From Blasia pusilla (Eukaryota), in contig CM114271.1 of the NCBI GenBank assembly GCA_050084515.1, positions 34,100,001-34,164,000 on the forward strand: a stretch of DNA of 64,000 nucleotides, given 5' to 3'. The position numbers and the translations under genes were made by a program. Positions 15,178-55,947 of this stretch are shown piece by piece. The notes under the pieces are model-generated. The model made no database searches and had not been told where the DNA came from. It was given only the letters and a program-made list of their open reading frames with translations. How positions within the stretch are numbered: position 1 is the stretch's first letter; every line of letters begins with the position of its first letter.

Positions 15178-18100
15178 AGACTTCATGGTTAGGAATCTCC
15201 GGGTTTGATGTTATGAAGAAGTGATCGCCTCGACACTATCATTCTTGATTCCTGTCGTGAGAGAATGGAGAGAGTATATAATAATTCTGTATTGAAAAAA
15301 AGAACTTCTTAAAGAGTTCACCTTGCATCAACTACGTTTGCTGCAGCTTAAAGGTTTGACCTTACTCGAAGAAAAGCTCTCGATACGACACTGGTTTGAG
15401 GAAAAATAGATGGTACCCACAATTATAATTTTCGCACAACAACATCTGATCAACATCGTCTGTCCTTTGACATACTTGACATGGATAGTCAAGTGGAGGT
15501 ATCCAAGTAGCAGTGACGATGGTGGGATCCAAGTTAAACAAGTGGTATGGTGCGCAATTTTTCGAATGGTCTTGAATGGTGCGTCCATCAACCCTTTGTG
15601 ATTGTAACATACCTAAAGGCCTAAGTCTTGATCTGTAAGATGATGACAAGTAGAGGTGTCCAAGGGTTGCCGCTGAAGATAGAAAAAATTACCAACATCA
15701 AAGTGTCTCACCTTCGGTTTGTAACTGCCACCTCTCGTGTGAGCATACCGTAGTGTGTCTCGATGTTGCGCGATTGCCAAGTTCTCCATGGCCATGGGCA
15801 TGACTCTCCTGAATAGGTCAACCCTCTTTGAGATAACCCAAGCCCAGATTTAATCAGAATCCAAGACTACAACCTGGTCCATTTGAGAGGCAATGGAAGA
15901 GGGTGGAACCGAGTGTTTGCCAAAAAGCAAGAAATAGGGAGAAAAGTGTGACAATGAGGCATGCGTGGACATTCGATACCCCATAGCAACAGCAGAAAAG
16001 GCCAGGTCCCAATCCTCCTTGTTTTTGGTGAGGAAAATCTTACATAGGCTCTTCTTGCACGTTTGTACCATCCTCTTGGCAAGCCCATTAGCTTCAGGGT
16101 GATCTCTCGAAGTTTGCCAATGGTCGATGAGGGCATGGTCAAGCAGCTCCTGCTATTCACCTCTGAAATCTGATTCCTGATCAGTAAGACACCCAGCATG
16201 GGCCCAAAATTGACTAAGGACCTGCTGAAGGAAGGCTTGGCTAGTGCTTCGAGAACTCTTATCCGGAAATGCCACCAAATCTATCCATTTAGAAAAGTGC
16301 TCAATCATAATCATGATGTAAAGATTACCCCGAGCCGTATGAGGTAATTCTCCAGCTAAATCACATGACCAGAGATAGAACATGCTTTGGTTAGGGAGTG
16401 GATGAAGTGTGGGTTGTCGACAAGAGAGAAGTTCTCACTCTATCACATTGTTCACAACTAGCAATCAGATTTCGGACTTGAACGTACATGAGGAGTGAGA
16501 AGGCTGTAAGTGCGCTTAACTCCAAAGTGTCCAAGCTCTGAATGTACCTTTTGAATGAGGCCAGGTCTCGCATGTGGTGGGGGAACCACTCTATCTCCTT
16601 GTAGCAAGCATCGGACTAGGTGGTTGTTTCTCCATGAGTAGCGTTTAGACCGTTGCTGTACGCGATCCTGCTGACCTGACGTAACTTCCCCATGCTAAGG
16701 AAATCCCAGAGTGTCTTGGTCCTCCCATATATCCACAATGAGGTAGCATTGTGGATATATGGGAGGACCAAGACATTGCGCTATTGCATTGCAGTAGCGC
16801 AAGGTAGCTAGATGCATGAGATGCTTGCACCGCTGAAATCTGGTCAAAGTCTTGTCTTACTTCTGAGAAATCTTCAGATGTAGTGAGGGGTCTCCATGAC
16901 ATAGTACCCGCATTTTGATGAGTGACACCAGGTCGATGAATAACCTCAAACTCATACTCCTGAAGTATGAGTGCCCAACGAGCTAACTTGCCGGTAAGCC
17001 TTTTGTCGGTCATCAACGGCTTAAGTGGCTGATGGTCGTTGTACAGGGTGAACTTGGTGCCATAGAGGTAGGGTCTGAAATGTATGACAGCCCATACTAC
17101 AGCAAGGCACTCACCCTCGTAAGAGGAGTAGTTACTTTCCGCCTTGATGTCGCTCCTTGACACATAGGCAATGACATACTCATTATCTTTCTCATCGTGC
17201 TGGCCAAGTACAGCACCAATACCAAGAGCACTACAATCGGTATGTAGGATGAAGACCTGGCTGAAATCAGGTCTTTGAAGTATCGGGTACTCTGAAAGTT
17301 GCTCCTTGAGTGCTTGAAAGGCTAGTTGAGGGTCTTGATTCCAAGCCCAAGGGACGTCCTTCTTCAATAAGGCATAGAGAGGATATGCGATGGTGCTGAA
17401 ATTTTTGACGTAAATAGGGTAATAGTTACACAACCCAATGAAACTCCTCAACATGTGCACATCAGTAGGGTGAGGCATCTACAAAATGGCAACCACCATG
17501 GCCCAATGAGCCATGACGCCATTCGAAAGAATACGATGCCCAAGGTAAACTACTGATGTCACAAAAAACTCGCATTTCTTGGGATGTACTTTCATATCCA
17601 CAGAAATCAGCCTCTTGAATAGCTCCTCAAGATGAGCAAGGTGTTGCTCAATCCCCTTGCTGCGGACTAGCACGTTGTCAATGTAGAATTTCAGAAAATC
17701 TGCACCTTCAAGTACCTGGTCCATGACTAGTTGAAAGAATATGGGTCCATTCTTCAAGCCAAAGGGCATCAGCAGCCACTCCCATAGTTGATGGCTACCT
17801 TGGAATGCTGTTTTCTTGCATTCTTTTGCACGTAGTACAATCTGGTTGCAACCTTGCCGCAATTCCACAATGGTGAAGAGGTCCGAGTCCCCAATGCTAT
17901 CAAACAGCTCCTCTAAAATGGGCATGGGATATTGATGTTGAGGTGTAACCAAGTTCAGAGGTCGTTAATCCCCACACATTTCAGTCCACAATCCAGCGGA
18001 GTCCTTCTTTGCAGTCATAACCGTAGCCGTAGTGAAATCTGAACTAGAGGGATTTATGAGACCAGCCTCTTGGAGCTCCTGGCACCTCTTATCAACAAAC

Positions 18101-18619
18101 TCCCACTCATGCCTGCTCAGACGATGTCTCCTCCGATAGACAGGTGTCTCATCACTAAGGTCGATGGAGAACTGCATAGTCTTGTACTTGGCCAGATCCT
18201 TCATTGAAAACGCAAATACATTCTCATACTTCAGCAGCAATCTTGTGACCTGATCCCTTTGCTTCTTGTTGAGATGGTTTCCCATGATGAATGAGTAGTT
18301 AGCAACACATGGAATGGAGCTAGAAAGTGTGCCAAAAGAACCAGATGTACTAGCTTTTCCACTATCCAACTGCGCATATTCGTGGAGGAATGTAGTCGCC
18401 TCTCCAAAACCTGACGTAACTCCAGGTCTGATCTGATCCATGAATGAGGTATTTTCAGAGGATTCAGATGTATGAGAGGCCATTGGAATCAAATTACACG
18501 GTACTCCTCCCCCCCCAAATAGTCGGAATGAAGTGCAAAGTGTTGAAGATGGGAAGATGTACTTGATCGGGGTGCCATGTAATAGCATTGCTGCAACTGA
18601 ATGCGGATTGACCCAACGC

Positions 18620-19348
18620 TGGCTGTGTGTACATTTGAGATAGTACACAGGTCACCAAAAGCCATGTGAGAGAGTTCAGATCCATAACTCTCCGCAATAG
18701 AATAGAGCATTGCGCTCTAATCTAGTCACTTTGGTGTGACAAGTCATGCCGATTTTGAACCCCATAGCCCTCTCTCTCTCTCGCACCGTCCAACCAGGGC
18801 GCAGGGTTTATGGTCGCAAGGTTACGACAGGCACTACTTAATAATGAGTACAGTCTCTCTCTCTCTCTCTTTAGGGCTTGGTTCATCCCAAGTACCTGTA
18901 GAATGGTGATAGACTAGGCCTGGCCCATCTCCTTGAAAGGCACGGGCTCCTGGAAATGAAACTAGAGTGGTCAAGCACCTCTTGGTTCACCTATTACGTT
19001 CGTCGGAAACCATGGAGTCTTCCCTTGCCACGTAACTAGTTGGCAAGAACTTTGGTCATCCAAGATGTGAGAAACCTAGAGCATAGGGTCTCTAATCTTT
19101 TTTTCAGAGCCAACACAACAGAGTGGTCCAGAAGTTAGCAAACGGTGCGCATAAGAACCACATTGCGCCGCATCAGGTAGGACTCTAGGAGAGGTGCCTC
19201 GAGAAAATGTTGGACCAGCATGTAATGCTCTTGCACTTTCTCTCTCTGATTATCCTGAAAAGGAGTGTTCTGAATTCTACAAAAAAGAGTGGGAGAAAGG
19301 GCTTGGGTCCAAGTGATTACTCGCACCATGTCCACGAAAAGGCTGGAC
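18620..19348 (-). pseudogene. C-terminal half of a C5-cytosine methyltransferase domain in family-2 pol
   Basis: Hand translation of the minus strand: SLFVDMVRVI...RIQNTPF (motif VI, ENV-like), DAAQCGSYAHRL.NFWT (VIII), TLVSFPGARAFQGDGPGLV, ERAMGFKIGMT (IX), RRVMDLNSLTWLL (X). These are colinear with the DNMT at 38.9-39.8 kb. Confidence 0.8.
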
Positions 19349-19882
19349 TCTCAACTTATCGTCTTCAAGCGATAGTTCTTCTTCAACCTCTTGAAGAACC
19401 CTTGGCACTCCTGACCGATGGTGGGGCACTAGTACCTCCACTCAGTACTCCCAGGTTCCAAGAACCCCCAATCCTTCTCTGAATCATTTTCAATCGGGTG
19501 GGGACATAGTAGGAGCACTACTTCCATGACAATGGGTGATAACTGAGACCAATATTGTCTCTTGAATCTCAGCAACATGGTCCTTCCTAAACTCATGGTT
19601 CGCAATGGGTGGTCCCTCAAGTCTTCCAAACAATACCAAGCCAAGAAGGGTGTAAAAATTTGGCGTTGACTGCATATCACACCCTCTCAAACCTGAATAA
19701 AGTCCTCCAACTCAATGGTGCCCACTTCGAGTATATGTGGGCCCTTCATGGCCCCATGGTCCAAATACCAAATCAATGGAGCTTGCAAAGTAGCGGCTGA
19801 ATCGTGTTTGGAACATCCTTTTCCTCCTCTTCATCAACCTTCGGAAGTGGAAAAGGTAGCCGATACCTCAATCCACTCCTTG
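19349..19882 (-). mobile_element. gag fragment of the family-1 element embedded in family-2 pol
   Basis: RSGLRYRLPFPLPKVDEEE, CDMQ, LEGPPIANHEFRKDHVAEI and FFKRLKK match 36062-36670 closely at DNA level. Confidence 0.8.
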
Positions 19883-22800
19883 AGCCTCTGTAGAACTTCT
19901 GGTCCATGCTTAATTTCAGTAGGAATAGCCTCCAAGCTTTCAGCAGCTTGTGCATAGGCTATATATCTCTTCTTCATCATCCTCCATCCACTCACTCATG
20001 GCTAGCTTGCCGGATGTAGGAAATGGTGTTTACCTCTTTGAACATACAGTGGCGAGCCATAAGATTATGGTTCCCATGTAAATCCAGAGGAATGTATACG
20101 CGGCTGTGGCCATCAGTTTCCCAATCCACTCGATAGTATGCGTGCTCGAACCAATTGTCGATTGTGAAGCTTGGTGGAAACAAGGCCTCTTGCCCAATGA
20201 GCACATCATATCTGCTGGAATTGGTGACTAAGAATCTGACCTGTAGATGAAGCTCCTGATCTGTAACTTCACTGAAGGTAAGTGAAATCAGATCATAGCT
20301 CTCCCCAAGTACCTCCTCCACATTCCCACTAGTGGTTCGAATCTGCCACATGGATTTCCGCAGTTTGGAGTCTAGCATGCCCATCTTCTTGGCAAATTGT
20401 AATCCCAAAATCATTGGTTGGGCACCTGTATCAAAGAGTACTACTCTAGGTGTATGTCCTCCCACCTTATTTTTTGACTTGGTGTTGTCAACCGTGGCAA
20501 CTCCGGTGGCAATGGAGGTTCTCTCGATCACTAGGTACTACCTTTGGAAATGTGCGAGAAACCTTGTGGAGAGAATAGCTATCCACAACACCTTTGCTGA
20601 GTAGCAAGTTCAAAATTGAAGTAGTCTTTGACCCTCTCTGATCTTTAGATGTAGGTATAGCTGTAGAGGAGCCATCTAGTTAAGCGATGTTGCTAGAACG
20701 AATGATCAAATTGCGAACGCCCTCCGCGATATGCAAACCAGAAGAGTGTCCCTTTAGAATGTGGGACGGGACCTCCATGACATGTAAAAAAGGGGATGGT
20801 AGAGGGCCTGATGTAGTATTCAGGGTGTCCTCTAGTATCGTGATACACCTCCCTGATGCTTAGCTTCAGGTCCTCGAAGCTGAATAGCGGTGTAATCAAG
20901 AGCTTATGCGCCACTTCGTGAACTGGAAGTTGGCACTTCACAAACTGATCATTGGACAGATCAAACTTCTCGTGATGTAAGTATACTCCTGAAACAAAAT
21001 AATTTGATGTCCCAACAGCTTGTGGTGTAGAAGCTGTCTCCTCGCCAACAAGGTGCTCTCCTCCTCCAAAGTGAGGGGACGGAAAGATTGTGGCATGACT
21101 GCCCTAGCCCCTCTAGCCCTGGTCATGGGACCTGTACCAGATGCAAGATAATCAGTCTGAACCACTCTCCTGGTGGTAGAAACCTTGCGTGTCACACTAG
21201 CTTATTGCGCGACGAAGTAGGATGGACAAAATGATGTATCAAATTCTGCGGTGAGACCAGATTGGTTCGCTGGGGAGAGAACATACCCTCCCATCATGGC
21301 CTCATGTGGGAGGTCATAGAACGACCTTGGAAATCCTTTCCCTAATCCTGAACCTTTTACAGCTTGAGCATGACTAGCTGTTGGGGTAGACTTGCCCTTC
21401 AATGTGGCAAGTTGGGCTCGCAAAGCCTCTACAACGCCTTCAGCGTTTGAACCTTGTGCTTGGGGCACCGACTTCTTGGCAGCCTGGTACTCTTGTTCTT
21501 AGAATCCTTGCTGGAGCTACGCCTTAAAGGAAATCCCTGAGTTGAAGGCTGAGCTGGCTTGCCTTTGGGTAGAGAGGCAACGGCTGGTTGTTGCAGATTT
21601 TGTCACGGTTTCCGGAGTCGCTTGCATTCCGGAAATTTGGCAAAACAAACAGCCTCTCGATAAGCCTATTTCCCACAATAATCACAGAAGAGATCCTTGG
21701 AAGGGATGTTGCATTCACGAGCCTTGTGATCAGGGTTACCACAATAGTTGCAAGAAGGTAGGATGGGTGCCAAAAAGTGCACCCGTTTGCTACGAGAAGA
21801 GAAATGAGAAGATCTGGTCAGAGTAGCGGATGGTGGCAGAGGTCTAGCACGGGCTGTAGGCCTCATATTGATGGCCTCATAGTGAGCATGGGCCAACTCC
21901 AACTTCTCAGAGATGTTGTACACATCCAACAAGGCGTAGGAGTTGCCAAATTCTGCGAAAACTCGTTGCAAAACTTGCGCATGGAGTGCCGGAGTACTCT
22001 CCATCGCATGAAGATACCGATGGGCAGCCTCCAGGTTTGTGATGCTCTGAGTGTCCTCCTTAAGCTTGAGGAGCCTCCTGTATAGCATCTTGAGGGTCTC
22101 TTACTTCTGCTGAGAGAAGATGGCGAGCTGGAAAATGTTTTCAGAGCTCTTAACCGGGAATTCTAGCTCAAGAACCCGGAAGAATTCTCCCACTGGATCA
22201 GCAAGGGCTAGTGAATTAATGGTAGTGGAAATGTAGGCCGTAGCAGCGGCGAGTTGTTGTGGAGTCAGCGCCACTGAGATAGGTACCGGATCTAGATTAT
22301 TTGCCTCGGTACCATGATGCGCAAAGGTCTTCCGTTGAACTTCTCAATTTTCCCAGAGGAGTTGCTGACGTCCATGGTGAATGAATGTGATGGAGTGGCG
22401 GCTCGCAATGGGCCAATGTCACATACACAGCCGATGTGAAACCCAGTCCGGCAGCTGAAGTATCCCACTGATTCAGTCCACCAAATGGACTCTGATATAT
22501 TCTAGATGATGTGTATCCGGAACCTGAACTTCTGATAGGGCTTGTACTAGGTGACGGCAGCGATGAAGGCCCTTGATTGTATCACCATGAATGCCGTGAG
22601 CTCATAGAAATTGGTACAAATGGCCGTGGATCACTTCGCAGCCGATAGTGTGGCTCTGGTTGGTCACTAGATCTCTCATCTCCAGAGGACATGTTGATGT
22701 TCCATGCCCCAAGAGCATGGTAGAAAAAGCCGAAAGTAGCACGGAGCCCTTGCCAAGAACTTTCTAACGTAGCCTACTTAACTACACACAACTTGCACTC

Positions 22801-33747: not shown

Positions 33748-34131
33748 TTTTTTCAAATAAGGGTATTTCAAATCATATTCTCAATAATTGTGTCCAACTC
33801 ACTTTACAAAACCTACTTATGTTACAAAGTCCAAATTCATGGACATATCCTATTCCATGCGAGGAAAAATATAATAATTTTCTTTGTTGCCCCATTCAAG
33901 TTTAGGTTTGAAGATCTATGGTTTATAGTCTAAGGTGATAAACGTATTTTGCATCTCTAGTCCAAAAGTACTTGAATTTACCACATTTAGCAAAATTGGT
34001 GATTTTCTTTGAGCCAAAAAATCCAACAGTAATTGGGAATATTTCGAGATCAAATTTCCATCGTGGAAATTTTGAGATTTTCTTCATTTCAAAAATTCCG
34101 AATATAATATTTATATTATAATTCCTTATAT

Positions 34132-34499
34132 TGTCATGACCATACGGATTATGTCGTAGAGTACAGTGTGTTAGTAGAGGCCATTCCTTATGTAGGACCG
34201 TAGTGGCTTGGTAGAGATGCGGTTTCATACATAGGGTTGGGGGTTACTCAATTGGGGGTGACTTTCCCAATAGGGCCCGCTCTTAGGTTGGAGGATATAA
34301 GGTGGAGTGCACTCAAAGAACAGTCAGTTCTTTGAGTTGAGCCTGTTGCGTTGGGAGTTAGCCTTGGTAGTGAGTAGAGCTCTTGGCTATAGTGTTTCCC
34401 GCAAGCTTCGACTTAGATTCTCCCATCATGGAGTGGGTTTGGCTCGATTGTATGTGATTCTATACGTGTTTTATGACAGTAGGTCTTTCACGGATTTCA
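34132..34499 (+). repeat. Repeat A1 (368 bp; distal U3-R-U5 part of the LTR)
   Basis: Matches 43477-43844 with 9 substitutions by manual alignment. Contains TATAA at 34296 and Inr-like TCAGT at 34324-34328. Confidence 0.95.
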
Positions 34500-34509
34500 C
34501 TCAAAGAAC
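34499..34509 (+). promoter_or_regulatory. Self-priming primer-binding site (Tf1-like)
   Basis: ACTCAAAGAAC at the LTR end is the exact complement of GTTCTTTGAGT (34327-34337) at the predicted transcript 5' end. There is no TGG tRNA-type PBS. Confidence 0.75.
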
Positions 34510-35961
34510 AGGAGTAGATCGATGGTAGTTTCGATTGTGGTTCAATAGGATCTGGTTAGGGCTGATTGTGTACTCAGCCGTGGATGTTCGTGGCTTATGG
34601 CCTATGTTGGAGGTATGAATCTGGTGCGTGGTAGGGTTGCGAAAGAAGCGCCTTGCTGAGAGCTTTCCAACGCGCTTTAGATCGCCGGATTTTGTCAAGG
34701 GAGTTGGAAGTTATCAAGGATTGAAGATTCTGGTTCGTGTTCGACGGTTTTTTGATGTGGAGAGCTTGGAGTGCGGAAGCTCTGTTGAAGTTCATCCAGA
34801 TCGGGTGAGAGGTTCCTATTGCTACTTGTATTGTAATCTCATGTGAAGCTATCTGCTTGAGTGTGTGGAGTGTTGCGGATTTCTGCGTGCATGAAACTTG
34901 GCGGAAGCGCTGTCGGATTTGCGATTCTGGAGGTGTATGGACAGCAAGTTTGTCTGTGTTGTAGCTGTTTTTTGTGGAGAGATAGCTATGGTGGTCAATT
35001 GAATTCTGGTCAAAACAGATTTGATTTTGGTCACGGATTTGTGAAGTAATTGGTGATCGAAATTTTGCGGACTAGCTCAAGGTCCGGCTATGGTGGACAG
35101 CGGATCGGAGGGGCTGGTTGGTTAGTGACTCGTTCATTGTTGGAGACTCCTATCCCGTTGGGGGCGCGCTGGTTGGGCCTCTCTCCATAGCGAAAATGGC
35201 GAAGCGTGGCGATAGGGGCATGTCTCGAGCATTTCTCGGCGTTTTGAGGCTTCGAGGCAACTTGTGGTAACTCGGGGCGAGTGGGCGTGAGAGTCGGAGT
35301 AAGGAGCAAGGAGCAAGCAAGCAAGCTTGCTTGCTTGGGCGTGAGGCAATTTTTGCAGGATTTGTGATTTGAGTGTTGCATAACTGGTCACCTATCTTTG
35401 GGCTATTCTTCTTGGAGGACGCTTAGCTGCTGAGTTCTTAACTATGCCAGTGTACACACTGTTGTATCTCATTTGGTGCTGTTCGGAGATGTGTTAGGCG
35501 CTTTATGCATCTCAGGTTTTTGGTTGATGTACCTCTAGCACATAGTACAGTGTAGCCTCTCCATGCAGGTGATATTTTCAGGTGTTGCGAGTTCGACTAG
35601 CACGTTATCGACCCGCGGCGGAGTAGCTATTGCGTTAGAATTGTGTGGTGGGTTTTGTGGATTCAAGGGGCACCACGTTTGGTGGATTATGTTACCTTGA
35701 TTTCCATTTGCGATTGGAGGGTTGTCGTTGGACTTCCTGTGTTTGGATCCCCTCCATCGTTGCTTCTTGCTTGCGCGCCCATTGTTAGGGTTGACGTTGA
35801 TTTCCAAAGTAGTCTTACTCTTGTGTGCTATCGATAGTGAGGTTGGAGTGATAACCAATAGACCGTGGGAGGCTTCTTGTGGTGATGAAAGTTAGTTTGC
35901 CTACACCCATAGCTAGTAGAGCTAGAATAGTATAGCGACATCGACGTCACTTGGTTACTTA

Positions 35962-37540
35962 ATGGTGGTAATTTGGTGGTGGTGCGGCATCGGCGTTGGT
36001 CATCACGGAGTTGTCGGGTGGTCTGGTTGGGGACCGTGGTGCGGACAGTGGTGGTTTCACACGGAGTGGATTTAGGTATCGGCTACCTTTTCCACTTCCG
36101 ACGGTTGATGAAGAGGAGGACGAGGGTGTTCCAAACACCGAGTCTTCTACATTGTTATCGAGTGTTGGAGCTCCATTGATTTGGGACATGGACGGGATAT
36201 ATGGGGCCATGAAGGGCCCACGAAGATACTCGGGTGCAGTGGGCACCATTGAGTTGGAGGACTTCATGCACGAGTTTGATACGTGGTGTGATATGCAAAT
36301 GTTGGGGAACGCCACGTTGTTTACACCCTTCTTGGCTTGGAAGGGGTTGTTTCAGCACTTGGAAGGACCACCCATGGATGATAACCATGAGTTTAGGAAG
36401 GACCATGTTGCTGAGATTGAGGCGTGGAGACAATATTGGTCTCCAGGCTATGTGTCTATCACCCATGGTGGTATTGGTAGTAGTGCTCCTACTATGCCAG
36501 CCAGCCCGATGTTGAGTGGTACGAGTACGAGCCGGAGTGGGGGTACCAGTGGAGGTACCCATGGAGGTACTAGTGGGGGTACTAGTGCCCCACCATCGTT
36601 CAGCCCGGTGGCAGAGTTCTTCAAGAGGTTGAAGAAAACTATCAGGGAGTGAAGACAGAAAAGTTGAGGAGTCTTTAGGAATTTGAGCGAAAGACTGGTG
36701 AGAGTCTTCGTGAGGCATACACTCGTATGCAACGTTTGATTTTAGTTACCCAGAGTGTGACTGAGGCTCAGGCAATCCTGTTTTGGTATGGGATCTTGGA
36801 CAAAGATTTGCGCCGTAGGGTACGTGATGTTACTCTTATGAGTGATGATTCACCCACATTGACCCATGTGTTTGCTCTATTTGAGAAGATTGAGCTTAAC
36901 ATGGTGAAGGAGAGAATGGTGACATCCGGCATTCAGTAGGGATACAACTACTACTTCTCGTGTTCAACAGCCCACCTCACAGTCTCGTAATAGTGGTGGT
37001 GGTAGTAGTAGTGGGAGTCGTGGGGGGTACACACGACCTCAGTCAGGTCCAAGAGGGACACTTGCGCAGAGACCATTGCCTTCATTTGCTGCCCGCAGAA
37101 GGGCGATCATGTTGGACATGTGGAGGTGATCATGTTAGGAAGTTTTGTCCCCAAGAGGATGGGAGACGGACTTTGGAGGATGGGCCTCAGTTGGCCCCAA
37201 CTCAGTGTGATCATTGCGGGAGACCAGGTCATCCTCGAGAGCGTTGCTTTGATCTTCATCCAGAGTTGAGATCAGGCCGCGGCCGTGGTGGAGTAGCTCC
37301 GAGAGGCCGAGGTGGTAAAGGTGGTAGGGGTGGTAGAGGTGGACCGGTGGTTGAGAGCCTCACGGTGGCTACCCCTACCACTACGACAGAGTCAGCTATG
37401 GTCGCAGGATTGAGTGATTGGAGCGGAAGTTGGCTACTATGGTCGGGTATCCAACATAGATCAGGTTCAGGAGCAAGGGCTTTCACCTCTTATGGAGGGG
37501 ATGATCTCTCTTATATGGCGAGTGCAAAAGACAAAGGTTG
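35962..37540 (+). pseudogene. gag (capsid-like region, CCHC zinc knuckles, RGG tract), frameshifted
   Basis: PRRYSGAVGTIELEDFMHEFDTWC, CWTCGGDHVRKFC, CDHCGRPGHPRERC, GRGGKGGRGGRGG. Confidence 0.8.
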
Positions 37541-38010
37541 AGGCATCACTGCGATTCTGAGAGGAGCCACTCAAGCGTCGAGCCACGTGGTGCTCTTGTG
37601 GAGTTGGACCCACAGAGGGGTGAGGCGGGAGGCGAGGCTAGGCTTCCCAGTCATTCTTGTTGTCCGAGGTGCTTAGGACTCCATCCATGGTTCCCCACGC
37701 ACCCTATTGAGCCGCAGTGGGGACCGAGGCATCTACATCGCATGTAGTAGACACGGATGCAAAGATCCATCGGCAAGATTATGTGCGGATGGCAACTTCA
37801 GCGTTGGGATCCCCATTATTTTCGCCACGGAGTCGATGGCTTTAGGAGTTGACTTAGCTCTCAGTATTTCAGCTAGCACCACATTGTATGAACGTGGGGT
37901 GTTATTCGCTACACGTGCTCGAGGTGGATGAGGGTGTTGCGGTGGAGCGACCCTCTATGTCAGGTGTAGTATTGAGTACCAGTGCTACTTGACAGGCAAC
38001 AGCGGCGAAG

Positions 38011-38520
38011 ATGGATGCATTACCAGCCCGGCCAGCCATTGATCGTGAGAGGCTTACACTTGGTGTATGTATGTTGGACAAATGGAGTGGGATATTCCGA
38101 TTTGTGAGTCCTACAGGACAGGTGTATAGACCAGATAGAGTCTTGTTAGACTCTGGTGCCCAACCTTTGATGTTGGGAAAGGCGGCATGTATTGGTTTGG
38201 GTATTTGGAGGTCAGAGCTTGAGCCTTGCCCATTCCAGATTCAAACATTACTTGGAGGAGCCAATGATAGATCTCAATTCATGACATGGGAGAAGTTTTC
38301 TGTACAGTTGAGACCAGATCATGCGACTAATAGCTCCCGGTTGGGAGTATCTTCGGTAGTCACATCAGCCGAGTCGTATGATGTACTAGTTGGAGGAGCA
38401 GTATTGTACCCGATGGGTTTTCATATGGATTACTGGACTGAGACAGCGTCTTATAGACCTGGTTGGCAGTCCGGGGATGGACGTATGAGCCAAGTTCCTG
38501 TGAGATTTATTTATGGGGCT
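38011..38520 (+). pseudogene. Retroviral-type aspartic protease domain
   Basis: RVLLDSGAQPLMLG ... YDVLVG (D-S-G active site and D-x-L-x-G motif). Confidence 0.8.
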
Positions 38521-38874
38521 CAACCAGGAGGGTCTTCCCCAAGAGTGTTAGCATCTGTGGCTGGTTTTAGTGGAGTAGTCACTTGGCCAGGAGACTTTTT
38601 GGAGGGTAATGTTTCTGCTATGGATTCTCCTACGCATGAGGAGGTAAAGGAGGTCCCTATTTTTGCAGCCGTGGCATCCTCATCGTTGGATGTGCCACTT
38701 TGGAGTTCAGGCGGTGCACTACGGCAGGAGGCTGATCGCCTAGTGCAGAAGGCTTGGTGTGAGGCTGTTATACCTCACGAGGAAGAGGAGGCCCCACGGC
38801 GGACTCCAACTTCTGGTCCAGTTGGGTTATCCCCTTTGGATACTACACCCATTCTATGGCAGTATCCGCTGGAG

Positions 38875-39830
38875 GGCATTTGTGTGTTAGATCTCTTTGG
38901 TGGGATTAGCACTGGTTTGGCTGCAGTGTTGGAGGCCGATATTCCTGTGCGGAGATACGTGTATGTGGAGCGAGATGAGACGTCCCAGAGAGTCTCATCC
39001 CGACATATTGGTCAGTTGATGCGGAGATATCCTGAGTTGTTGCCGCCATCAGCTATTCGTGGGTACCAAAGTGCTTTGCCATCACACATTGCATTTTTTG
39101 GGGGCGCAGGACCTTGAGAGGGTTGGTCTGTGGATTTGGTGATTGTTGGATGGCCATGTCAGGATCATACACGTGCAGGTCGTGGTGAGGGATTACACGA
39201 CCCTAGGTCTCGATTGTTTTGGGAGATGTTACGGATGTTACGACATCTTCAGGTTCATTAGGCACGTGCTCCAGCTTACATTCTGGAGAATGTTCCATTG
39301 TTGGGTGACACTCGGACCCGGATGATGGCGAGTGTTCATGAGGTGCGGTCTTGGATTGGACCAGCGGTGTTGTTGGATGCAGCGCGAGTTGGCTCGCGTG
39401 CACATCGTCCACGCTTGTGGTGGACAAACTTGTTGCCTAGGGAGGTTCTACGTCGACCATATGATGCAGTGCAGCGGGATCCTTGCCTTACCGTGGATAG
39501 TATCTTGGATACTGGGCGACTTTCTCAAGTGGTGAGGGTTATTGATTAGTCACCCATGGCAGTGGTGAACCGTGTGGGCCAGCCTAGGATGGCACTACCC
39601 ACATTTGTGAGTTTTCCCTCGTCACATGCCTACAGGGAAGGTGGTCCGGGGCTTGTATGGGATTCTCATGCGGCGATTGGTGGAGCCTAACGCTGATGAG
39701 AAAGAGCGTGCGATGGGATTTGCTACTGGTGTGACAGTGGTTGCTTCTATTTCTGAGGCTTCACGACGTCATGTGTTGGGTCAGGCCATGGACCTGAATT
39801 GTTTGACTTGGATTTTGAGTCTTGGTATGG
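38875..39830 (+). pseudogene. C5-cytosine DNA methyltransferase (DNMT) domain inside pol
   Basis: Motif I VLDLFGGISTG (38884), II YVYVERDE, IV DLVIVGWPCQD (PCQ 39154-39162), VI ILENVP (ENV 39286-39294), VIII AHRPRLWWTN, IX ERAMGF and X LGQAMDLN, in canonical order. Disrupted by stops (39115, 39259, ~39547) and frameshifts. Confidence 0.92.
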
Positions 39831-40209
39831 CCGAGCAACGTCGACTTCGGACTACGTCTGTGGGTCTTCCACCCCTTGTAATGAGCTCGATGGCTATTGG
39901 GACGGTAGAGGCATCGGCTGGGGGCGAGGAGAATAGTATTTTGCATCCTTGGAGTAAATGGGATGTAATGGCTGGGCATGTGGAGTTGGTTGCTCATGTT
40001 GGTGGAGGAGTTATTTGCTCAGATGATGGTGTAGCTAAGGGTGTACCATCTTGTGAGGGGGTTATGAGTGACCAATGGCATCATCCTCTCCCTCTAGTGT
40101 GCCAGTGGAGGAGACTTGGGAGCCATTACTTGGGCCCAAGCTTACGGGAGGTGAGAAACGACGCTTGACATAGTTCCTACGTGCTTATAGGAGTTGTTTT
40201 GCCTTTTGC

Positions 40210-41560
40210 ATGAAGGAGTTGGGTTCTCTGGTTGGACCCGGTATACGGATTGATTTGGCTAGTGATACGCCAATCTTCCGTCGTCCCTACCGATATAGTG
40301 ATATGGAGAGGGACCTGATTCATAGTAGGACGTTGGACCTTTTGGAGGCTGGATTAGTGGAGTTGTCGCATGAAGAGTATGCATCGCCCATGTATCATGT
40401 CATGCTCGCTAAAAAGGATATGCATGGCAACTACACGGATAGGCGGATGTGTGGAGATTATCGTCCTATCAATCGGCAAACCAAGGCCGATAGGTATGCC
40501 ATGCCTACACCGAGGAGATCTTTGATGTGGTGGGACAGCAAAGATTTTCAGTACTTTGGATCTTCAGCAGGATATCATCAATTGCCGATTTGGGAGAGTG
40601 ACAAGGCCAAGACAGCATTTTGGGGTGTCAACTCTCATGGCAAGGATTGTTTGTACCAGTGGAAATTCTTACCCTTTGGGTTGAAGAATGCATCTTCCGA
40701 GTTTCAGAGAGTGATGGACAGGATCCTAGGAGGGTTGGATTTTGTTCGGTGTTACATTGATGATATCTTGGTGTTCAGTAACACGGTGGAGGAGCATCAG
40801 ATACATTTGCAGATGGTGTTTGAGCGGTTGAAAGCTCATGGTCTACGTTTGCATCCAGGAAAGTGTAAGTTCTTCCATGAGGATGTTGAGCACTTGGGTC
40901 ATGTGATCTATCCAGGTGGTTTGGGAGTTCAGCAAGCAAAGGTGGAGGCTATTGCACTTATTCCGCATCCGATAGATGTGAGTAGAGTTTGGGCATTCAT
41001 GGGATTGGCGAACTACTATCGGAGGTATGTGAAGGGATTTAGTGCTATGGCAAAGCCTTTGAACCAATTGCTGAAATCAGATCAAGAGTGGCACTGGGGA
41101 GATGATCAAGAGAGAGCTTTTGTGGAGCTTAAGGCCCAATTGGTGGCGGCGCCTATCTTGAGGAGACCTATCGAGGCGCCCATTTAGTTACACACTGATT
41201 GGACTACGTTGGGACTTGGAGCGGTGTTGACACAACATGATGATGAGCACATGGAGTTTGTGGTGGCCTATGCAAGTTGTTCGAATAATGCAGCGGAGTC
41301 GCGCTATAGTTCATATGACGGAGAGTGCTTGGCAGTAGTGTGGGCTGTGGCACACTTTAGGTGTTACTTGTTTGGCACATAGTTTACCCTTGTTACTGAT
41401 CACCAGCTGCTCAAGTGGTTGATGGAGTCTGACAAGCTTACAGGGGAAGCTTGCACGGTGGCTCTCTTATCTTACAGAGTATGACTTCCGGGTGGTACAT
41501 AGACCTGGAGTTGCCAACCTTGATGCTGATGGGTTGAGTAGGAACCCATGTACTAGCCAA
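40210..41560 (+). pseudogene. Reverse transcriptase + RNase H (Ty3 type)
   Basis: RMCGDYRPIN, LPFGLKNA, CYIDDILVFS (YIDD 40753-40764), HTDWTTLGLGAVL, TDHQLLKWL, NLDADGLSR. Confidence 0.95.
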
Positions 41561-41899
41561 GAGGATACAACTGGGGCTAGATGGCATGGCAAGGTTGATG
41601 AGGAGATGGTGCCAGGTTGGTATGCATCCGCCTTTTTATGTTGGTTAGGGGTGGACTCTAGTATGGAGGATCACATGATATCTTACTCTAGTCAGAGGGT
41701 AGATGGCCACCCTTCAAATCCTAAGGTTGGAGATGGTGGTAGGGATCAGCGTGATATTCATGATGATGCGTTGGTGTTGGAGTTCCTACGGACCAGTAGG
41801 GTGCCATGCATAGTGAGTGCCAAGGAGCGAGACCGTGTTCTTCAACGTGCTAAGAGGTATCGATTGGAGGGAACACATATTCTCCGCGTGTGGGAGGAT

Positions 41900-43030
41900 G
41901 GTAGAGTACGAGTAGTGCCACATTTGACTCAGAGAGAGCGCATTGTGCGACATGCCCATGAGGAGTTGGGACATTTTGGGGTAAAGCGTATGTATAGCTT
42001 ACTCCTTGGCCAGTATTGGTGGCGTGGCATGCATTCTCAGGTGCAGCAGTTGATGTCACGTTATATGGTTTGTGATCGGGTGAGGGCATCATTCAATGCC
42101 CCTACACCACAATTACACCCCTCGCCTATTATGGGGTTGAGTTATCGTTGGAGTGTGGACTTTGCGGGACCGTTACCGTTGACTGCACGACATCATCGAT
42201 ATGTGTTGGTGATGGTGGAGCACTTCTCCAAGTAGATTGAGTTGGTGGCATTACCGGACAAGGCAAGTGAGGGAACGGCGTATGCGTTTCTTGATAGAGT
42301 ACTTAGTCATTTTGGTGCACCAGCTGAAGTGTTGACCGACCAGGGTACAGAGTTTCAGGGTGAGTTTCATGTCTTGTGTAACAAGACGTTCATTGATCAT
42401 CGGACCACATCTCGAGATCATCCAGAGGCAGATGGTTTGGCTGAGCGTGTGGTTTAGACGGTGAAGAGGGCATTGCGCAAGTATGGCCTATAGAAGGGGC
42501 ATCTTGGAGACTAGGATATTCAGTTGCCATGGTTAGTCATGGGGTATAGGTTTAGTCGCCAAGCATCCTTGGCTTCCTTCTCACCTTATTTTCTGTTATA
42601 CGGCCGAGATCCAGACTTGCCAGCAGCAATTTGTCGGGAGTCTAGTGAGGTGGTGATCCTTGATGACCCAGAGATGTGGATGAGGATGTATTCTCAGCGG
42701 GCGGAGCTCTTTCGGAGAGTTATGCCAACAGCCTTTGAGAATCTTGCCATTGCTCAACACAGGGATACGTTGCGATATGCAACCATTCGGGGTGGAGATT
42801 ATCGACCATCGATTCGTAGGTTCCATGTGGGGGACTATGTCTATTTGCAGCAAATTGCACCGACAACATTGGATGTGACGGCAGGCCGCACTATTTTACG
42901 AGTGTGCAAGGTGTTAGCTTCTGGAGTTCTCATGTTGGAGGGTCGTGATGGAGTTGTTTGGAAGGACCATGTGCGTAATTGTGCGTCATGTCATCTTCCA
43001 AATGTGGATGGTATTGTTGACCCAAGCTTA
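41900..43030 (+). pseudogene. DDE integrase (HHCC zinc finger + rve core)
   Basis: HEELGHFG...YWW...CDR, WSVDFAGPLP (~42150), VLTDQGTEFQG (~42330), HPEADGLAER (~42420), SPYFLLYGR. Confidence 0.92.
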
Positions 43031-43054
43031 GTCATGATACGTGCTAGCTTGAGG

Positions 43055-43195
43055 TGCATGTTGTGTGGGTCTACTGGTAACGCAGCCCGTATGTTGGTGT
43101 GTGATCGGTGTTCTAGGGGTTGGCACATGATGTGTTTGACTCCACGTATGGATGTTGTTCCTACTGGAAGGTGGGTTTTTCCTCGATGTACTTAG
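43055..43195 (+). pseudogene. PHD finger at the integrase C-terminus
   Basis: CMLC...MLVCDRCSRGWHMMCLTP...GRWVFPRC is a C4HC3 pattern with one Cys mutated to Phe. Confidence 0.9.
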
Positions 43196-43358
43196 GAGAG
43201 GTAGATGACTTGATCTTTGCATGATATGGATTACAGATGTGCGACTAACAATGGGGCAACCTAGCACCCGACCTTCTGATTCGGGCACCCAAGAAGGTGT
43301 ATAGCATGTAGTAGATGTATAGGGCTACCTAGGAGTTAGAGAGACCTAACCGCCAGTT

Positions 43359-43369
43359 AGGGGGGCGAG
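43359..43369 (+). promoter_or_regulatory. Polypurine tract
   Basis: AGGGGGGCGAG immediately before B1 (TGTGG at 43371). Confidence 0.8.
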
Positions 43370-43370
43370 T

Positions 43371-43844
43371 TGTGGTACACTTGTGTTTGTGGATGTTCTC
43401 GTCTATGTTATGTATGTATGTGAGTATGGTATGTCAACGATGTATGTTGTATGACGATGTGGATTCGCACGACAGCTGTCATGACCATACGGATTATGTC
43501 GTAGAGTATAGTGTGCTAGTAGAGGCCATTCCTTATGTAGGACCGTAGTGGCTTGGTAGAGATGCGGTTTCATACATATGGTTGGGGGTTACTCAGTTGG
43601 GGGTGACTTTCCCAATAGGGCCCGCTCTTAGGTTGGAGGATATAAGGTGGAGGGCACTCAAAGAACAGTCAGTTCTTTGAGTTGAGCCTGTTGCGTTGGG
43701 AGTTAGCCTTGGTAGTGAGTAGAGCTCTTGGCTATGGTGTTTCCCGCAAGCTTCGACATAGATTCTCCCATCGTGGAGTGGGTTTGGCTCGATTGTATGT
43801 GATTCTATACGTGTTTTATGATAGTAGGTCTTTCACGGATTTCA
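43371..43844 (+). repeat. Complete LTR unit B1-GC-A2 (474 bp, TG...CA)
   Basis: Begins right after the PPT and ends at the same CA that precedes the PBS in A1. Contains the internal palindrome GACAGCTGTC at 43471-43480. Confidence 0.9.
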
Positions 43845-43846
43845 GT

Positions 43847-43950
43847 TGTGGTACACTTGTGTTTGTGGATGCTCTCGTCTATGTTATGTATGTATATGAG
43901 TATGGTATGTCAGCGATGTATGTTGTATGACGATGTGGATTCGCACGACA
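43847..43950 (+). repeat. Repeat B2 (104 bp), right terminus
   Basis: Matches B1 43371-43474 with 3 substitutions. Joined to A2 by CA-GT-TG. Confidence 0.95.
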
Positions 43951-46900
43951 ATACTTTTTCTTATTTGAAAACAATATTCATAACATATGGCTTTCATGGA
44001 GATAAACTTGTATGAATTGGTCTTATTTTTTGCATTAGTAATTTCATTTCATTAATAAAAATTTATAATATATTAAATAAGGAAATATTTTTATTTTCCT
44101 TAAGATTATGTATATGATTGTAGAAAATAGGCATAAACCTGAAAATGTAAATTTTTTACTTAGATTTCTTATTTCTATTTTTTAATTCTAGTAAAATCAA
44201 AGGCATTGATGTCCCGTTTACATATTAATTTTTTAGCATGGTTGATTTTTTAAATTATAAAAAAAATCAATCAATATTTCTAGAATTTTAAGAAATAACT
44301 CCAAATCTAGGAAATAAAAATATATCTTACTATTCCTATATGAAATTTTACTTCTTTTCATAACTATTCCCTCTTCTTTTAATATTAAAATAAATGAGAC
44401 TTGTGAATGTTTCATATATTTTGACCTTATCATTTGCAACTTAGTAAGTAATAATGGAAAAACCATCTCTCAAAATAATTTTTGAAATAAGTACAAAAAT
44501 GCAATATGGGGAGTTGGAGAAGATCCTATATATTAGCAAAAACAATTATTAGAATATTTTGAAAGAAATAATTTACAAAATTAAATTGGAAATAATCTCT
44601 ATTATGGTGACTAAATTTTGAGAGAAGCTTAGGGTAAGATTGGAGTGGCAAGGATGATTAATGGAAATTTCATGCAGATACTTGGTCAAAGTCTATGACC
44701 ACAAAAAATTTCATGTAAGACCTTACCCATTGTCATTATCATAGAAAGTAGGTTGTGTTTAATATGGATTAGCTTATTCATGTTTCTTTATGAATTTGGA
44801 AGACTTGGAAATAATTTCATCAACTATTTTCCAAAGTTTTAATGATATGCAAATCATTGATCTAAAATAAGAAGGGATGATATAGCTATAATACATATCG
44901 GTGAACAACCCACACCTTGCACAAGGATAAATCATTCTTCACAAAAATTAAAAAAGAAAATATCCTTTCATTCAAGTAATGATAATATAGATTCTTCTAT
45001 TGCATCCTCTTATTCCATCTTTTTACATGTAGAGAGGTTCTTCATATACATATTAAAAATTGTGGAAATTTACTTCCCGTTGGACCAAAATTCAATCTTT
45101 ACGGCCCCGACGATAATTCCCTTTTTTTCCCTGTCCATCTGGTCTATCCACATGTCCTCTATACTTGTTCACTAATTACTTCCTCTCCCACCCCTCTCAA
45201 GGAACCCCATACTGGTTTTACGTAATAACAAAAATTGAATTATAATTATTCTTTTCCTAAAAACTTTCATTCATCAAAGATTTATTTTGGTTATCATGTT
45301 TTCATGCAAGTGGATGAGCGTGACATATTAACCCACATACAAAGGTCTAGAGAGGAAAAAGTAATAACTAGATTGGAGATACATAAGTGCCATGAGGAGA
45401 TGTTAAACCTTCTCTTGTTTGCTTCGTAGTTGTTCTTAAGTGCTCCACAACACAACTAGAATTGATGAATTATCATCGCCTCCCACCTAGTTTAAGAGAT
45501 GCATCTCAAGTCTTTTCTGATAGTCCATATTCTTAAAATATATTGCGTTCCACCAATTTAATTTGGATCTTTATGTCGTAATCAACCGTGTTGCTTGCAC
45601 CTTTCAGAGCGTCGGGAATGGGGGTCGGAAAAGTTTAGGGTGAGGAAAAAATTACGGGTCATATATAAACTCTTGGATTTCCCAGTGGAAATTAAAAATA
45701 CGCCGACCGGCTTATTAACCGGCGGCTCTAAAATAACCAGTGAATCCACGTCAGTGAATAATACTGAATATGCGCACTGCAGTTGCCCTCCAAGGACTCG
45801 GGAGAATCGAAGGTCCGGAAACGCGGTCCTCCGACGTTCATCGAACGGTCCAGATTACGCGATGGGCGGACGCTCTGGTCTATGAATCTAGGAAGAAAAG
45901 AGGTAGTAAGACTCAAGCGTTCGAAAACTGCTACCGAGCAGCCGCCGGCTTCCCATTGGTAGCTAGGCCTGTTAAAGTTAGCGTGTACGGTAGAAGCGTC
46001 CACGTGGATTACCACACGGCGCAGGAACGACTGTCGCCCGCCCACGCACGCAGTTACCGGTCCGCGCAATCACGACCGCGAGTCCGAGGCCACGAAGAAG
46101 CTGGTGGTCCCGGTCCGGCCTCCTGCCACATAGTCATGACTCCGCTTGCCACGTCCCGACTCCCGGTCCCTCGAGCCTTCACAGCCGTAGGCGTCCCCGT
46201 CAAGTTGTCTAGTACGCAGAGTTGTCCGCCGAAATTGAGGCCGCGCTCTGCCGCCATTCCCCATCAACTGGATCGGAATCCACCTCCACGCAACAACAAC
46301 GATTTCGAGAACCGGCTTTGTTTTGATTCATTGTTTGGCGTGTCTGTGAATCTCTCTCTCTCTCTATCTCGCTCTGGGAGACCGATTCTGGTGAGGCGGG
46401 AGGAGTTTCAAGAGGAAAGGAGAGAGCCAGAGAGAGAGAGAGCTATACAACGATTGAAAAGTGTGTAAGCCGCCGGAGATCGGTTGCTTGATTGCGTGTA
46501 GGATCGTCGATTCGGCGGCGGGCTGCTGCGGTTGATGATCTTTTCTGCGTCTGTGGCCTGCGGTGGTGGGATTCAAGCGTGAACGGTTGGAATCCCGAAA
46601 GGTGAGGGGGGGAGACGAGCAGCGGCGGAAGTGGTGGTAGAACTGAGAGAGGGAGCGGGAAGAAAACAATCTCAGATTTGTCTGGTTCAACACAGTCGGG
46701 ATTTGGTCAATTCGGAAAAGTTGCCCACACACGCTCCCTTGGAGTAGATTGTCCGCCCCCTCCACGGTGCCTTCCCACTCACGGTGGTCCACCGATAGAC
46801 TGGTCCCCTGCGTCCTCTCGTTGGAGAAGTCTTTAACTCAGAGGGCATGTAGATAGGCGATTAATTGTACTGTCTCCCTCCAGACACAATCAGACGGAGA

Positions 46901-50492: not shown

Positions 50493-51187
50493 TATTGTGC
50501 ACATTCACTTCGCTACACAACCCAGATTGCTAGTCATATCTACACAAAATCGATCTTCCCAACACACGGGTAGATCCACATACATACAAAAATGAACTCA
50601 TGCATGTACACCAAAACCACACAACAAAATCAACGTAAAAATGGCTCACACAGCCAAGTGCACTCTCGAATCTACACATCATATTAAGCCATATCCACCC
50701 TCCACTATATGGGAATCCAGATTCTAGCACCCTAGTTCCTACCAAACACTAAGCAAGATAGATGATCTAAAGGCTCAATATGAGAACGATTGCTTTTGAA
50801 AGCCTAATCTTCCTCTCTTATACCGTTGGGAAGATGTAGAAGCTTTTCCCCAAAAAATAGCCATCCAAATGGTAACATGCGTGCACAGGTTATTGGGTGA
50901 TCCTTAACTTGGTCAAAAAGTTACCAAACCAAAAATAGCAAAAGAGGGCATTTTTCATAAACGATGATTCCAATGCAACAGACCTGTCGTCAACCTCATC
51001 TGAAACTTCACGACATAGTTACACTTGAAAATCCCGTTGATCCCCTATATTAGTTGACACGGTAGAACTCTATCTGTCAACTAACTAAGATGTGACAGTT
51101 GTCATGCACATACATATCACTACATAATCCAAATCGCTAGTCACATCCACAAAATGCACAACAATGATCTTCCCAACACATAGGTAG
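50493..51187 (-). mobile_element. B-A-B type 3' end of another, older split-LTR element
   Basis: Degenerate direct repeat 50493-~50573 vs 51100-51187 (shared GCTAGTCA and GATCTTCCCAACACA..GGTAG). Junction GACA-GT-TGTC at 51094-51103. Confidence 0.55.
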
Positions 51188-54600: not shown

Positions 54601-55947
54601 TAGTAATTTTGCCAGATTGACCATAACTTTTTGCTCGCAACTCTAAATTGCACACCGTCTATTGCACACGCGTACAACTTCACGATCTACAACGACATCA
54701 AAAAATATTTTCACGGTTGACCATCGATTGTGATGGTTGATGGTGAATATGACGGCGACAGCCGAAGGCGGCGCGGCGGCTGGTTTAGGGTTTGAACAAT
54801 TTAACCCTAAAAATCGCCTAACAATGGCAATTTTGCAAGATTGACCATAAGTTTTTGCTCGCAACTCTAAATTTCACACCATCTATTGCACATGTGTACA
54901 ACTTCACGATCTACGACGACATCAAAAAATATTTTGAATCGAACATTCCAATAAAAAGTGAGGGGGATTGTTGTACAGCCCAATGTCTCTTTCTCCTACA
55001 CAAAATTCGGCAGCGCTTCCGCGCTGATTTCTCCCAAAAAAATGTAAAACCTATGAGAACACAAATCAACATGCTACATGGTACTCCCGAGAGCACTCGC
55101 ATGGAGCAACCCGCCCCCATACTCAATTCCTATCAAAAATTGGGCAGCGCTTCCGCGTGCCACTCTCCCGTACAAAAAATCAGCAAAGAAAAACAGCAAA
55201 CTCGCACGACTCTTGCTCCGGTGAGCACTCCCATGAGCCATAAAGCGGGGAACACTGTCCCCCAACCTGCACCGAACATCGAGCAACGAGCGAGCTCCCC
55301 CATGAAGCTCTCTCACGCAGTCATTCTCTCTTTGTAAAATAAGATCCAATCTTGCTCACAACATCATACTTCTCACATGTGTGCACTCTCACATGTCTCT
55401 CTTAATGTCAAACCAAACCCACTCTCTTGATGAAAGGCTTGGGTTACACTCACAAGGAAAGGGACCATAGCTCTGCCGCCTCGTGCCAAGAGGTTCAACA
55501 AAGAGAGAATGAGCTCTCAAGCTCTCTCTCCTTGAGGTATACCCCTCCCCTCTCCCAAGCTCTCTCCATGGTAACCTATGCTCCTAAGTCACCTTCTTGG
55601 CTCTTGACTTGATGTAGGAGGTCAAAGACCACTTACCAAAACTAGAAAGTCGACCATATACTCAAAATGGTACTTGCCTAAAATAGTAGGTTCCTCAATA
55701 TGGCTCTAAATGAGCAGAAACGAAGGGGAAACATGCTCTCTCAGGTTTCCCGAGGCCTTAGTAGGTCATCCTCAACCTCCTGAGTTTGTCTTCCACTACT
55801 CGTGAAGGCGCTCTACTTGATCTCATCGATCTATCCTAAAAGACGTGATATCTAATCAATCTTCATGAGAGCTCTACATGCAAGTAAGCACCTTCTCCAC
55901 TTAAAACCCCATTTTCTCGATAAATTAAAAGGCTTTCATAGATGACA
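51650..55947 (-). mobile_element. 5' half of a third Ty3-type relative (LTR A, leader, internally deleted gag, protease), truncated just before the DNMT position
   Basis: GPHRFSGAIGTIELHDFIGEFRSWCD, VELDPQRGEA, HVFLDSGAQPLMLGKA, AESYDVLVGGAMLYPMGF and AAFSSAITWPSDL are all homologous to family 1. The LTR-like segment 55333-55947 starts TGTCA and ends TTACA on the minus strand, and shares GAGTGGGTTTGG with repeat A. Confidence 0.8.
54489..54935. repeat. Two tandem ~224-bp units containing TTTAGGG...CCCTAAA
   Basis: Units start ACGGTTGACCATCGATT at 54489 and 54713 and are highly similar throughout. Confidence 0.9.

Follow-up and report, generated by a model that had tools for sequence, protein, structure and literature searches.

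A putative integrase attachment site inside the U3 region of a Ty3/gypsy element with permuted ends in Blasia pusilla

By which ends is an LTR retroelement inserted when its boundaries with the host DNA lie inside its own LTR? Textbook LTR elements integrate a linear DNA via its tips, and end-joined circles are regarded as dead ends. A circle-junction route was reportedly proposed for retroviruses in 1984. Early reports of retroviral circles as integration precursors 'have not been substantiated', according to the available part of PMC1180852. The question is raised here by an element in a window of 64,000 nt, the whole stretch of DNA that we analysed (Blasia pusilla, GCA_050084515.1, contig CM114271.1, positions 34,100,001-34,164,000 of the forward strand). 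The Ty3/gypsy element occupies positions 34132-43950 of this window and has the layout A-internal-PPT-B-GC-A-GT-B. Its features are as follows.

34128..34131, + strand: target duplication, left copy, ATAT (from the sequence; 4-bp duplications are found family-wide)
34132..34499, + strand: A1, the 5' repeat (distal U3, R and U5), without B; opens with TGTCATG, the left integrase end; 9/368 differences from A2
34296..34300, + strand: TATA-like box within A1
34327..34336, + strand: predicted RNA 5' end and self-primer GTTCTTTGAG, complementary to the PBS, 31 nt past the TATA box
34500..34509, + strand: self-priming PBS CTCAAAGAAC, immediately 3' of A1 (1015 A-PBS ends genome-wide)
35972..37541, + strand: gag-like region with zinc-knuckle-like motifs, interrupted by stops and frameshifts (translation only)
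37993..39830, + strand: protease (LLDSG), then a DNMT3-like domain (LDLFGG, GWPCQ, ENV, RPRLWW), broken (motifs by eye)
40174..41420, + strand: reverse transcriptase and RNase H (Pfam RVT_1, RT_RNaseH)
41900..43020, + strand: DDE integrase with H2C2 finger and D(42158)-60-D(42338)-35-E(42443), in a frame with stops (Pfam rve, H2C2)
43055..43192, + strand: PHD finger at the integrase C-terminus (Pfam PF00628, E 2e-8)
43357..43368, + strand: polypurine tract (PPT) TTAGGGGGGCGA
43369..43474, + strand: GT and B1 (104 bp, proximal U3; B1 is 43371-43474), ending CACGACA
43471..43480, no strand: internal att junction GACA-GC-TGTC, spacer at 43475-43476 (sequence and copies)
43477..43844, + strand: A2 (distal U3, R and U5), 368 bp; transcripts apparently end inside it (RNA-seq)
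43845..43846, + strand: GT, the joint between the two cDNA tips (right tip TTTCA), new in each cycle
43847..43950, + strand: B2, the displaced 5' piece of the left LTR, ending CACGACA, the right integrase end
43951..43954, + strand: target duplication, right copy, ATAC, one mismatch

The domain order gag-PR-RT-RH-IN with a DDE integrase is that of Ty3/gypsy elements, gag and protease being recognized by motif only (Pfam searches of 35972-37541 and 37993-39830 gave no match). A preliminary description of the locus had supposed a DDE retro-integrase, and the rve and H2C2 domains as well as the D-60-D-35-E triad, which is intact in the window copy, bear this out. The best solved relatives of a family integrase profile were Ty3 Gag-Pol and then the integrase of prototype foamy virus (PFV), and homologues with names came from liverworts, Sphagnum, Closterium and Klebsormidium, which by themselves pointed to a probable bryophyte host. 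Pfam detected no chromodomain at the integrase C-terminus, where the PHD finger is found instead, and no tyrosine recombinase among 11 frames scanned. The DNMT3-like domain (~38880-39830) lies between protease and reverse transcriptase and has motifs common to the relatives; in a sister copy its best PDB matches were all DNMT3A, but weak (E about 0.5). One relative, L200, has the order RT-DNMT-integrase instead of the DNMT before the RT.

The 16-mer CACGACAGCTGTCATG at 43468-43483 encloses the perfect 10-bp palindrome GACAGCTGTC (43471-43480). At the left terminus of the element, CCTTATAT is followed by TGTCATG (from 34132), and at the right terminus CACGACA (to 43950) is followed by ATAC. The palindrome GACA-GC-TGTC, whose GC had been described as missing from the insertion ends, was thus seen at 43471-43480, and the GC occurs at neither terminus. 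GACA-NN-TGTCATG matched the genome 1790 times. The reversed control matched 54 times, and gaps of 3 bp and 1 bp gave 277 and 219 matches; the junction is far above chance. GACA-NN-TGTC alone was found at five further, unrelated sites inside the window, and the 10-mer is therefore informative in context only.

Random variation of the spacer length, which the preliminary description had named as evidence against itself, was not seen: B-NN-A-B had a 2-bp spacer in 30/30 best-matching copies (40 scored, of 3186 candidates), and the length was the same in 47/47 copies. Right ends stopped at GACA in 28 of 29 best-matching copies. Of the 47 copies, 28 had GC as the spacer and another 13 had AC, GT or AT; these dinucleotides also predominate among metagenome relatives. 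In most cases, whatever the family, the spacer is GC or a C-to-T derivative of it, and it may therefore be constrained. Spacer changes outnumbered CA/TG changes (12/60 versus 1/60, Fisher p=0.002), a result on which we do not rely because assembly errors and the choice of best copies confound it.

We also considered a 3-bp spacer as a real substrate. Ten copies with GACA-NNN-TGTCATG and the spacer ATT were fetched, of which nine belonged to the family, and a perfect 4-bp duplication was present in all seven two-ended ones. In copies of this kind (L230-L248) we counted 19 indels in B1, clustered at CG/CHG sites, versus 2 in B2 of the same copies. B1-only indels at such sites suggest unpolished read errors in repeats of the assembly, and some frameshifts in the copies may be artefacts of the same errors. 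We tentatively read the ATT spacer as a post-insertion change or an assembly error rather than as a 3-bp substrate.

Target duplications were then used to locate the insertion ends. A1 was found in 17 of 20 upstream regions, with a 4-bp duplication that was perfect in 13, had one mismatch in three and was absent in one (L020), whereas mismatched flank pairs agreed over 4 bp in 6/272 cases. Other families in the same genome share the layout, with a B of about 128-138 bp and an A of about 435-515 bp; six of the 14 copies examined were two-ended, and their duplications were perfect in five and had one mismatch in one. Relatives were also found in metagenomes as two lineages, with integrases 72-79% and 45-51% identical to the query. 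These comprised 80 loci, 56 with at least 700 bp downstream, and B..B was present in 25 of the 56 (some rows repeat one locus); of seven complete rows, four had a perfect duplication and three a duplication with one mismatch. In two metagenome loci (L138, L197) the junction was present and the ends were not found, and in L200 no junction was found. Across families B measures 104-176 bp and A about 290-515 bp, and the left junction is in each the att site nearest to the DNA end.

A start of the type flank-B-A-PBS was found in none of five B-A-PBS matches, compared with 1015 A-PBS ends in the genome. The five B-NN-A-PBS copies were two joined to a leader, one opposite permutation (both described below) and two rearranged. 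Copies with a single B (A-int-PPT-B) made up 8 of 12 inspected from 68 matches, with a perfect duplication in six and one mismatch in one of seven, and such copies are common among the metagenome relatives. We do not count them as evidence because 1-LTR circles, double cutting and B1xB2 recombination would all fit. Two solo A-GT-B units (L097, L098) have 4-bp duplications and resemble normal solo LTRs.

The signals for reverse transcription define a different pair of ends. A purine tract adjoins B1, and none was found before A. The PBS CTCAAAGAAC lies directly 3' of A1 and is complementary to a site in A 31 nt past the TATA box. Such pairing was found 30-32 nt past the TATA box in 6 of 13 copies, from three families with different sequences; there was no call in four of the 13, and one further call was a poly-T match. 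A PBS complementary to the predicted RNA 5' end is the self-priming signature of Tf1/Tcn1 elements (PMC6317226, accessible part). The positions of the PPT and of the self-primer therefore give GT-B-GC-A as the LTR defined by reverse transcription, with the insertion ends 104 bp inside U3. The preliminary description had placed the att site about 104 bp into U3, which agrees with the length of B1 (43371-43474).

It had also predicted stronger conservation at the junction than at the tips TGTGG and TTTCA. GACA/TGTC was present in 9/9 family representatives, which had been picked by this motif, and the next bases outward agreed in 8/9. The LTR tips diverge by family: TTTCA/GTTGTGG in that of the window, and CTTTA/TTGGAGA, TTTTT/GTTGTG and TCAAT/ATACATG in three others, from whose tips TG..CA is absent. 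The junction is thus conserved across families and the TGTGG/TTTCA tips are not.

If the insertion ends lie inside U3, the terminal B2 has to be accounted for. Over 47 copies there were 38 cases of a variant common to B1 and B2 of the same copy (1000 permutations gave 9.9 on average and 18 at most), and from column 13 on, which is most of its length, B2 follows the B1 of its own copy. In three RNA-seq runs of one study, with reads almost all in one orientation (sense if the library is dUTP-type), the depth per bin in the main orientation was 98-192 over B1 and the start of A2, and 1-3 beyond the boundary of A and B2, where spanning reads could be under-counted since B1 occurs in the same stretch. 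RNA loose ends listed at the end of A run on into the PBS in two of three runs. The RNA-seq reads gave no sign of the predicted start at 43672 (A2 coordinates). In two of three runs, read starts pile up at 43638, a short way 5' of the TATA box in A.

The joint between the tips was examined directly in the insertions. Of 960 tip joints, the first 100 listed were classified: 95 had the exact length, three had an additional A, one lacked one base and one contained PBS letters; larger deletions would escape the search pattern behind the 95/100. In lineage II, 15 rows comprised six blunt joints (4 distinct loci), two joints minus one base (AA; AT), six merged at AT and one deleted joint shared by two rows, where the AT-merged joints include L154 from outside the 15 and duplicate loci are included. 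The tip joint is therefore plainly variable in this lineage. Two copies have leader sequence between A2 and GT-B, 161 nt in one, which has a perfect TCTC duplication, and about 97 nt in the other; B was therefore fixed to whatever the right tip was. Another copy has the opposite permutation, A-GT-B-GC-A-int-PPT-B, with a perfect AAGT duplication. It is possibly the other cut of the same 2-LTR circle; alternatively, it could come from recombination between a solo A-B unit and a 1-LTR circle. Every cycle attaches the terminal B afresh.

Taken together, we put the probability that the element uses an internal att site and newly joined tips at roughly 0.9. We further think it rather likely that the ends of reverse transcriptase and those of integrase have come apart in this self-priming Ty3/gypsy element. 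In the form that we favour, with some reserve, the tips are joined to a closed 2-LTR circle and integrase nicks the internal palindrome. The RNA would run from R in A1 to within A2, its 3' limit being that of the RNA-seq reads and its 5' start a prediction. Its 5' end would fold onto the PBS, a pairing seen in the sequence, and prime as in Tf1. Ordinary reverse transcription, judged by the positions of PPT and PBS, would yield a linear DNA with two LTRs, each GT-B-GC-A. The two tips would be joined, mostly precisely, to a 2-LTR circle, of which the new joint is visible in the insertions. At the palindrome of the left LTR, integrase would nick each strand 3' of CA, leaving 2-nt 5' GC overhangs as expected from DDE chemistry. 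The processed ends would be inserted with a 4-bp stagger and the GC trimmed, consistent with the observed ends and duplications. The product A-int-PPT-B-GC-A-GT-B keeps one intact junction and would therefore be able to replicate again.

A closed circle has two equal junctions, and against it stand 538 copies of the left-cut pattern versus one opposite copy among 9 + 5 candidates. This one-sided choice would be explained if reverse transcriptase itself joined the tips. The plus strand at the right tip would jump to the left tip via a 1-2 nt overlap and copy GT-B-GC, the old strand would be displaced, and integrase would process the branched left junction; no full circle would be needed. LTR reverse transcriptases make clamp-type jumps. 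At the standard joint, and likewise at the three extended ones, the tips overlap by A or AG, and an AT overlap is merged in 6/15 lineage-II rows. However, the joint of family F4 has no overlap, 6/15 lineage-II rows (4 distinct loci) are blunt and the opposite permutation exists once. We regard the jump as unlikely, though a serious contender.

The same product would arise if integrase cut the left junction of the linear DNA and inserted both pieces, and host repair then joined the A tip to GT-B within the chromosome. In favour of such a repair after insertion, the left junction is the att site closest to the DNA end in every family, and cutting at both junctions would give single-B copies directly. 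It would require a chromosome break for each insertion, yet 95/100 joints (of the first 100 listed of 960) are exact in length, which makes it improbable in our view.

We see still less chance for templated copying similar to that of DIRS/Ngaro elements, in which the RNA would run through A2-GT-B2 and both junctions would be copied by extra strand jumps. The layout is indeed that of split direct repeats (legends of Fig. 1 and Fig. 4c in PMC5890265, a source available in part), and the tip joint is very uniform in the family of the window. Against it, the RNA depth falls to 1-3 past A2, B2 follows its own B1 from column 13 on, and joints contain remnants of the PBS or leader and, in lineage II, are variable.

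That this is an ordinary LTR element (A-B or B-A), with a layout due to recombination, nesting or mis-assembly and an incidental palindrome, is hardly credible and largely refuted by the duplications at the A and B ends: the solo units L097 and L098 do look like TG..CA solo LTRs with 4-bp duplications and the assembly probably has errors near CG/CHG sites, but hundreds of independent insertions have exact ends, several families and independent metagenome assemblies show the same layout, and no flank-B-A-PBS copy occurs among five B-A-PBS matches versus 1015 A-PBS ends.

DIRS-order elements have a circle intermediate, and we know of none with target duplications. The DIRS-order elements PAT, Ngaro and SymbioDIRS-Dnmt3 share the A-coding-B-A-B layout (PMC5890265, accessible part). 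They use a tyrosine recombinase, whereas the element described here has a protease, a DDE integrase, a PPT and 4-bp duplications. It has the Ty3/gypsy features of a PBS after the 5' repeat, a PPT before the 3' LTR and a 4-bp duplication (the class has 4-6 bp), but in place of two full co-linear LTRs with the outer tips as insertion ends it has A ... B-A-B. Tf1/Sushi and plant Tcn1 elements likewise have a PBS right after U5, a PPT and a DDE integrase (Neumann et al. 2019, PMC6317226, as far as accessible). They differ in having two full LTRs inside the duplication and a chromodomain, compared with a PHD finger, a DNMT-like domain and permuted ends here.

The nearest precedent in layout is KnitGypsy-Dnmt3 of Klebsormidium nitens, with DIRS-type repeats and Gypsy domains (de Mendoza et al. 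2018, PMC5890265, Fig. 4c legend). It shares the Gypsy domain set and has a Dnmt3-like domain in Pol; here the DNMT is recognized by motifs. A K. nitens protein with integrase and PHD finger, P0112, was a 48% identical match and is assumed to be KnitGypsy-Dnmt3. The available text and supplementary text of PMC5890265 give no termini, target duplication, att junction or mechanism for this element.

The preliminary description had also proposed an 'IS-like circle-junction chemistry'. In that wording it found no support: the att junction is inherited in the LTR, and the joint made in each cycle is A-GT-B. Elements of the IS3/IS30/IS256 type form the junction afresh in each cycle, with a spacer taken from flanking DNA (PMC7780238, consulted in part, also for what follows). 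The likeness would be that a DDE enzyme integrates from abutted ends with a short spacer, which is then lost. There, however, transposase makes the junction via a figure-eight and the spacer length varies, whereas here the junction is copied by reverse transcriptase and GC is inherited. Because the spacer here is inherited and theirs comes from flanking DNA, IS3/IS30 serve as an analogy for the cleavage step only.

The closest chemistry to the step proposed for this element, by analogy, would be junction cleavage by PFV integrase. In vitro this enzyme nicks both strands after CA at a palindromic LTR-LTR junction, leaving 2-nt 5' overhangs, and 2 nt are lost on integration, with 36/40 junctions exact (Delelis et al. 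2005, PMC1180852, accessible part). The palindrome of PFV results from joining the true LTR tips, and use of the circle is optional and disputed (same source); here it is stored in U3. Unlike in PFV, the tips here need not carry TG/CA.

The junction and the mechanism were undescribed in the literature that we searched, with subscription papers, Repbase reports and bioRxiv supplements outside its scope. Nor is such a layout described in the accessible parts of PMC2774666, PMC2864245 and bioRxiv 10.64898/2026.05.21.726589. What is new is the proposed integration route; DIRS-like repeats on a Gypsy element have been known from a figure legend since 2018. We probably deal with an old streptophyte Ty3/gypsy clade in which end-joined DNA is obligatory for a replicating insertion, a heritable U3 palindrome serves as att, the tips made by reverse transcriptase are no longer integrase substrates, and an intermediate, possibly that of a reverse-transcriptase jump, directs the choice of junction. 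The element may be a natural instance of integration from end-joined retroviral-type DNA, an idea that is disputed. If this is true, a natural DDE retroelement lives by the circle-junction route, and the genome record would hold an integrase family whose replicating product needs tip joining and internal cleavage, which makes the circle-junction question testable. Annotation would also be affected: pipelines that require two TG..CA LTRs and a surrounding duplication, such as the LTR-FINDER screen in the available part of PMC6317226, would miss such elements or set their bounds wrongly. The elements potentially missed are numerous, with about a thousand 5' ends of one transcribed family in this genome.

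Several copies have unusual structures. One (L096) reads int-B-A-B-A-B. Internal deletions have left L056 (about 1.9 kb) and L089/L216 (about 2.9 kb) with A...PPT-B-NN-A-B; L089 has a perfect 4-bp duplication, and these short copies are possible non-autonomous derivatives. The copy L222/L227 has an inverted B at the left and an inverted A at the right with the flanks CATG/CACG, the att ends being swapped via an internal inversion. The target of L104/L116 is an inverted repeat (TGAGCGTTTTGT-ATCT ... ATCT-ACAAAACGCTCA), with the insertion in its centre. In L229, A1, leader and flank are tripled with a period of 1036 bp.

Related elements were also found elsewhere in the window. A second att-like junction, of another family, is ATGTGCATGACA-AC-TGTCACATCTTAG at 51094-51103 on the minus strand. 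The 5' half of an element of a related family spans ~55855-51650 (minus strand), from an A1 with a mutated TG to an (AG)n run; its PBS, CAAAGAGAGAATG, lies near 55335, and its gag- and protease-like remnants are 43-46% identical. A degenerate related element at ~15400-22500 (minus strand) retains RT (41%), integrase core (56%) and a PHD remnant, and a piece of it at 19346-19882 is 75% identical to the gag region of the main element.
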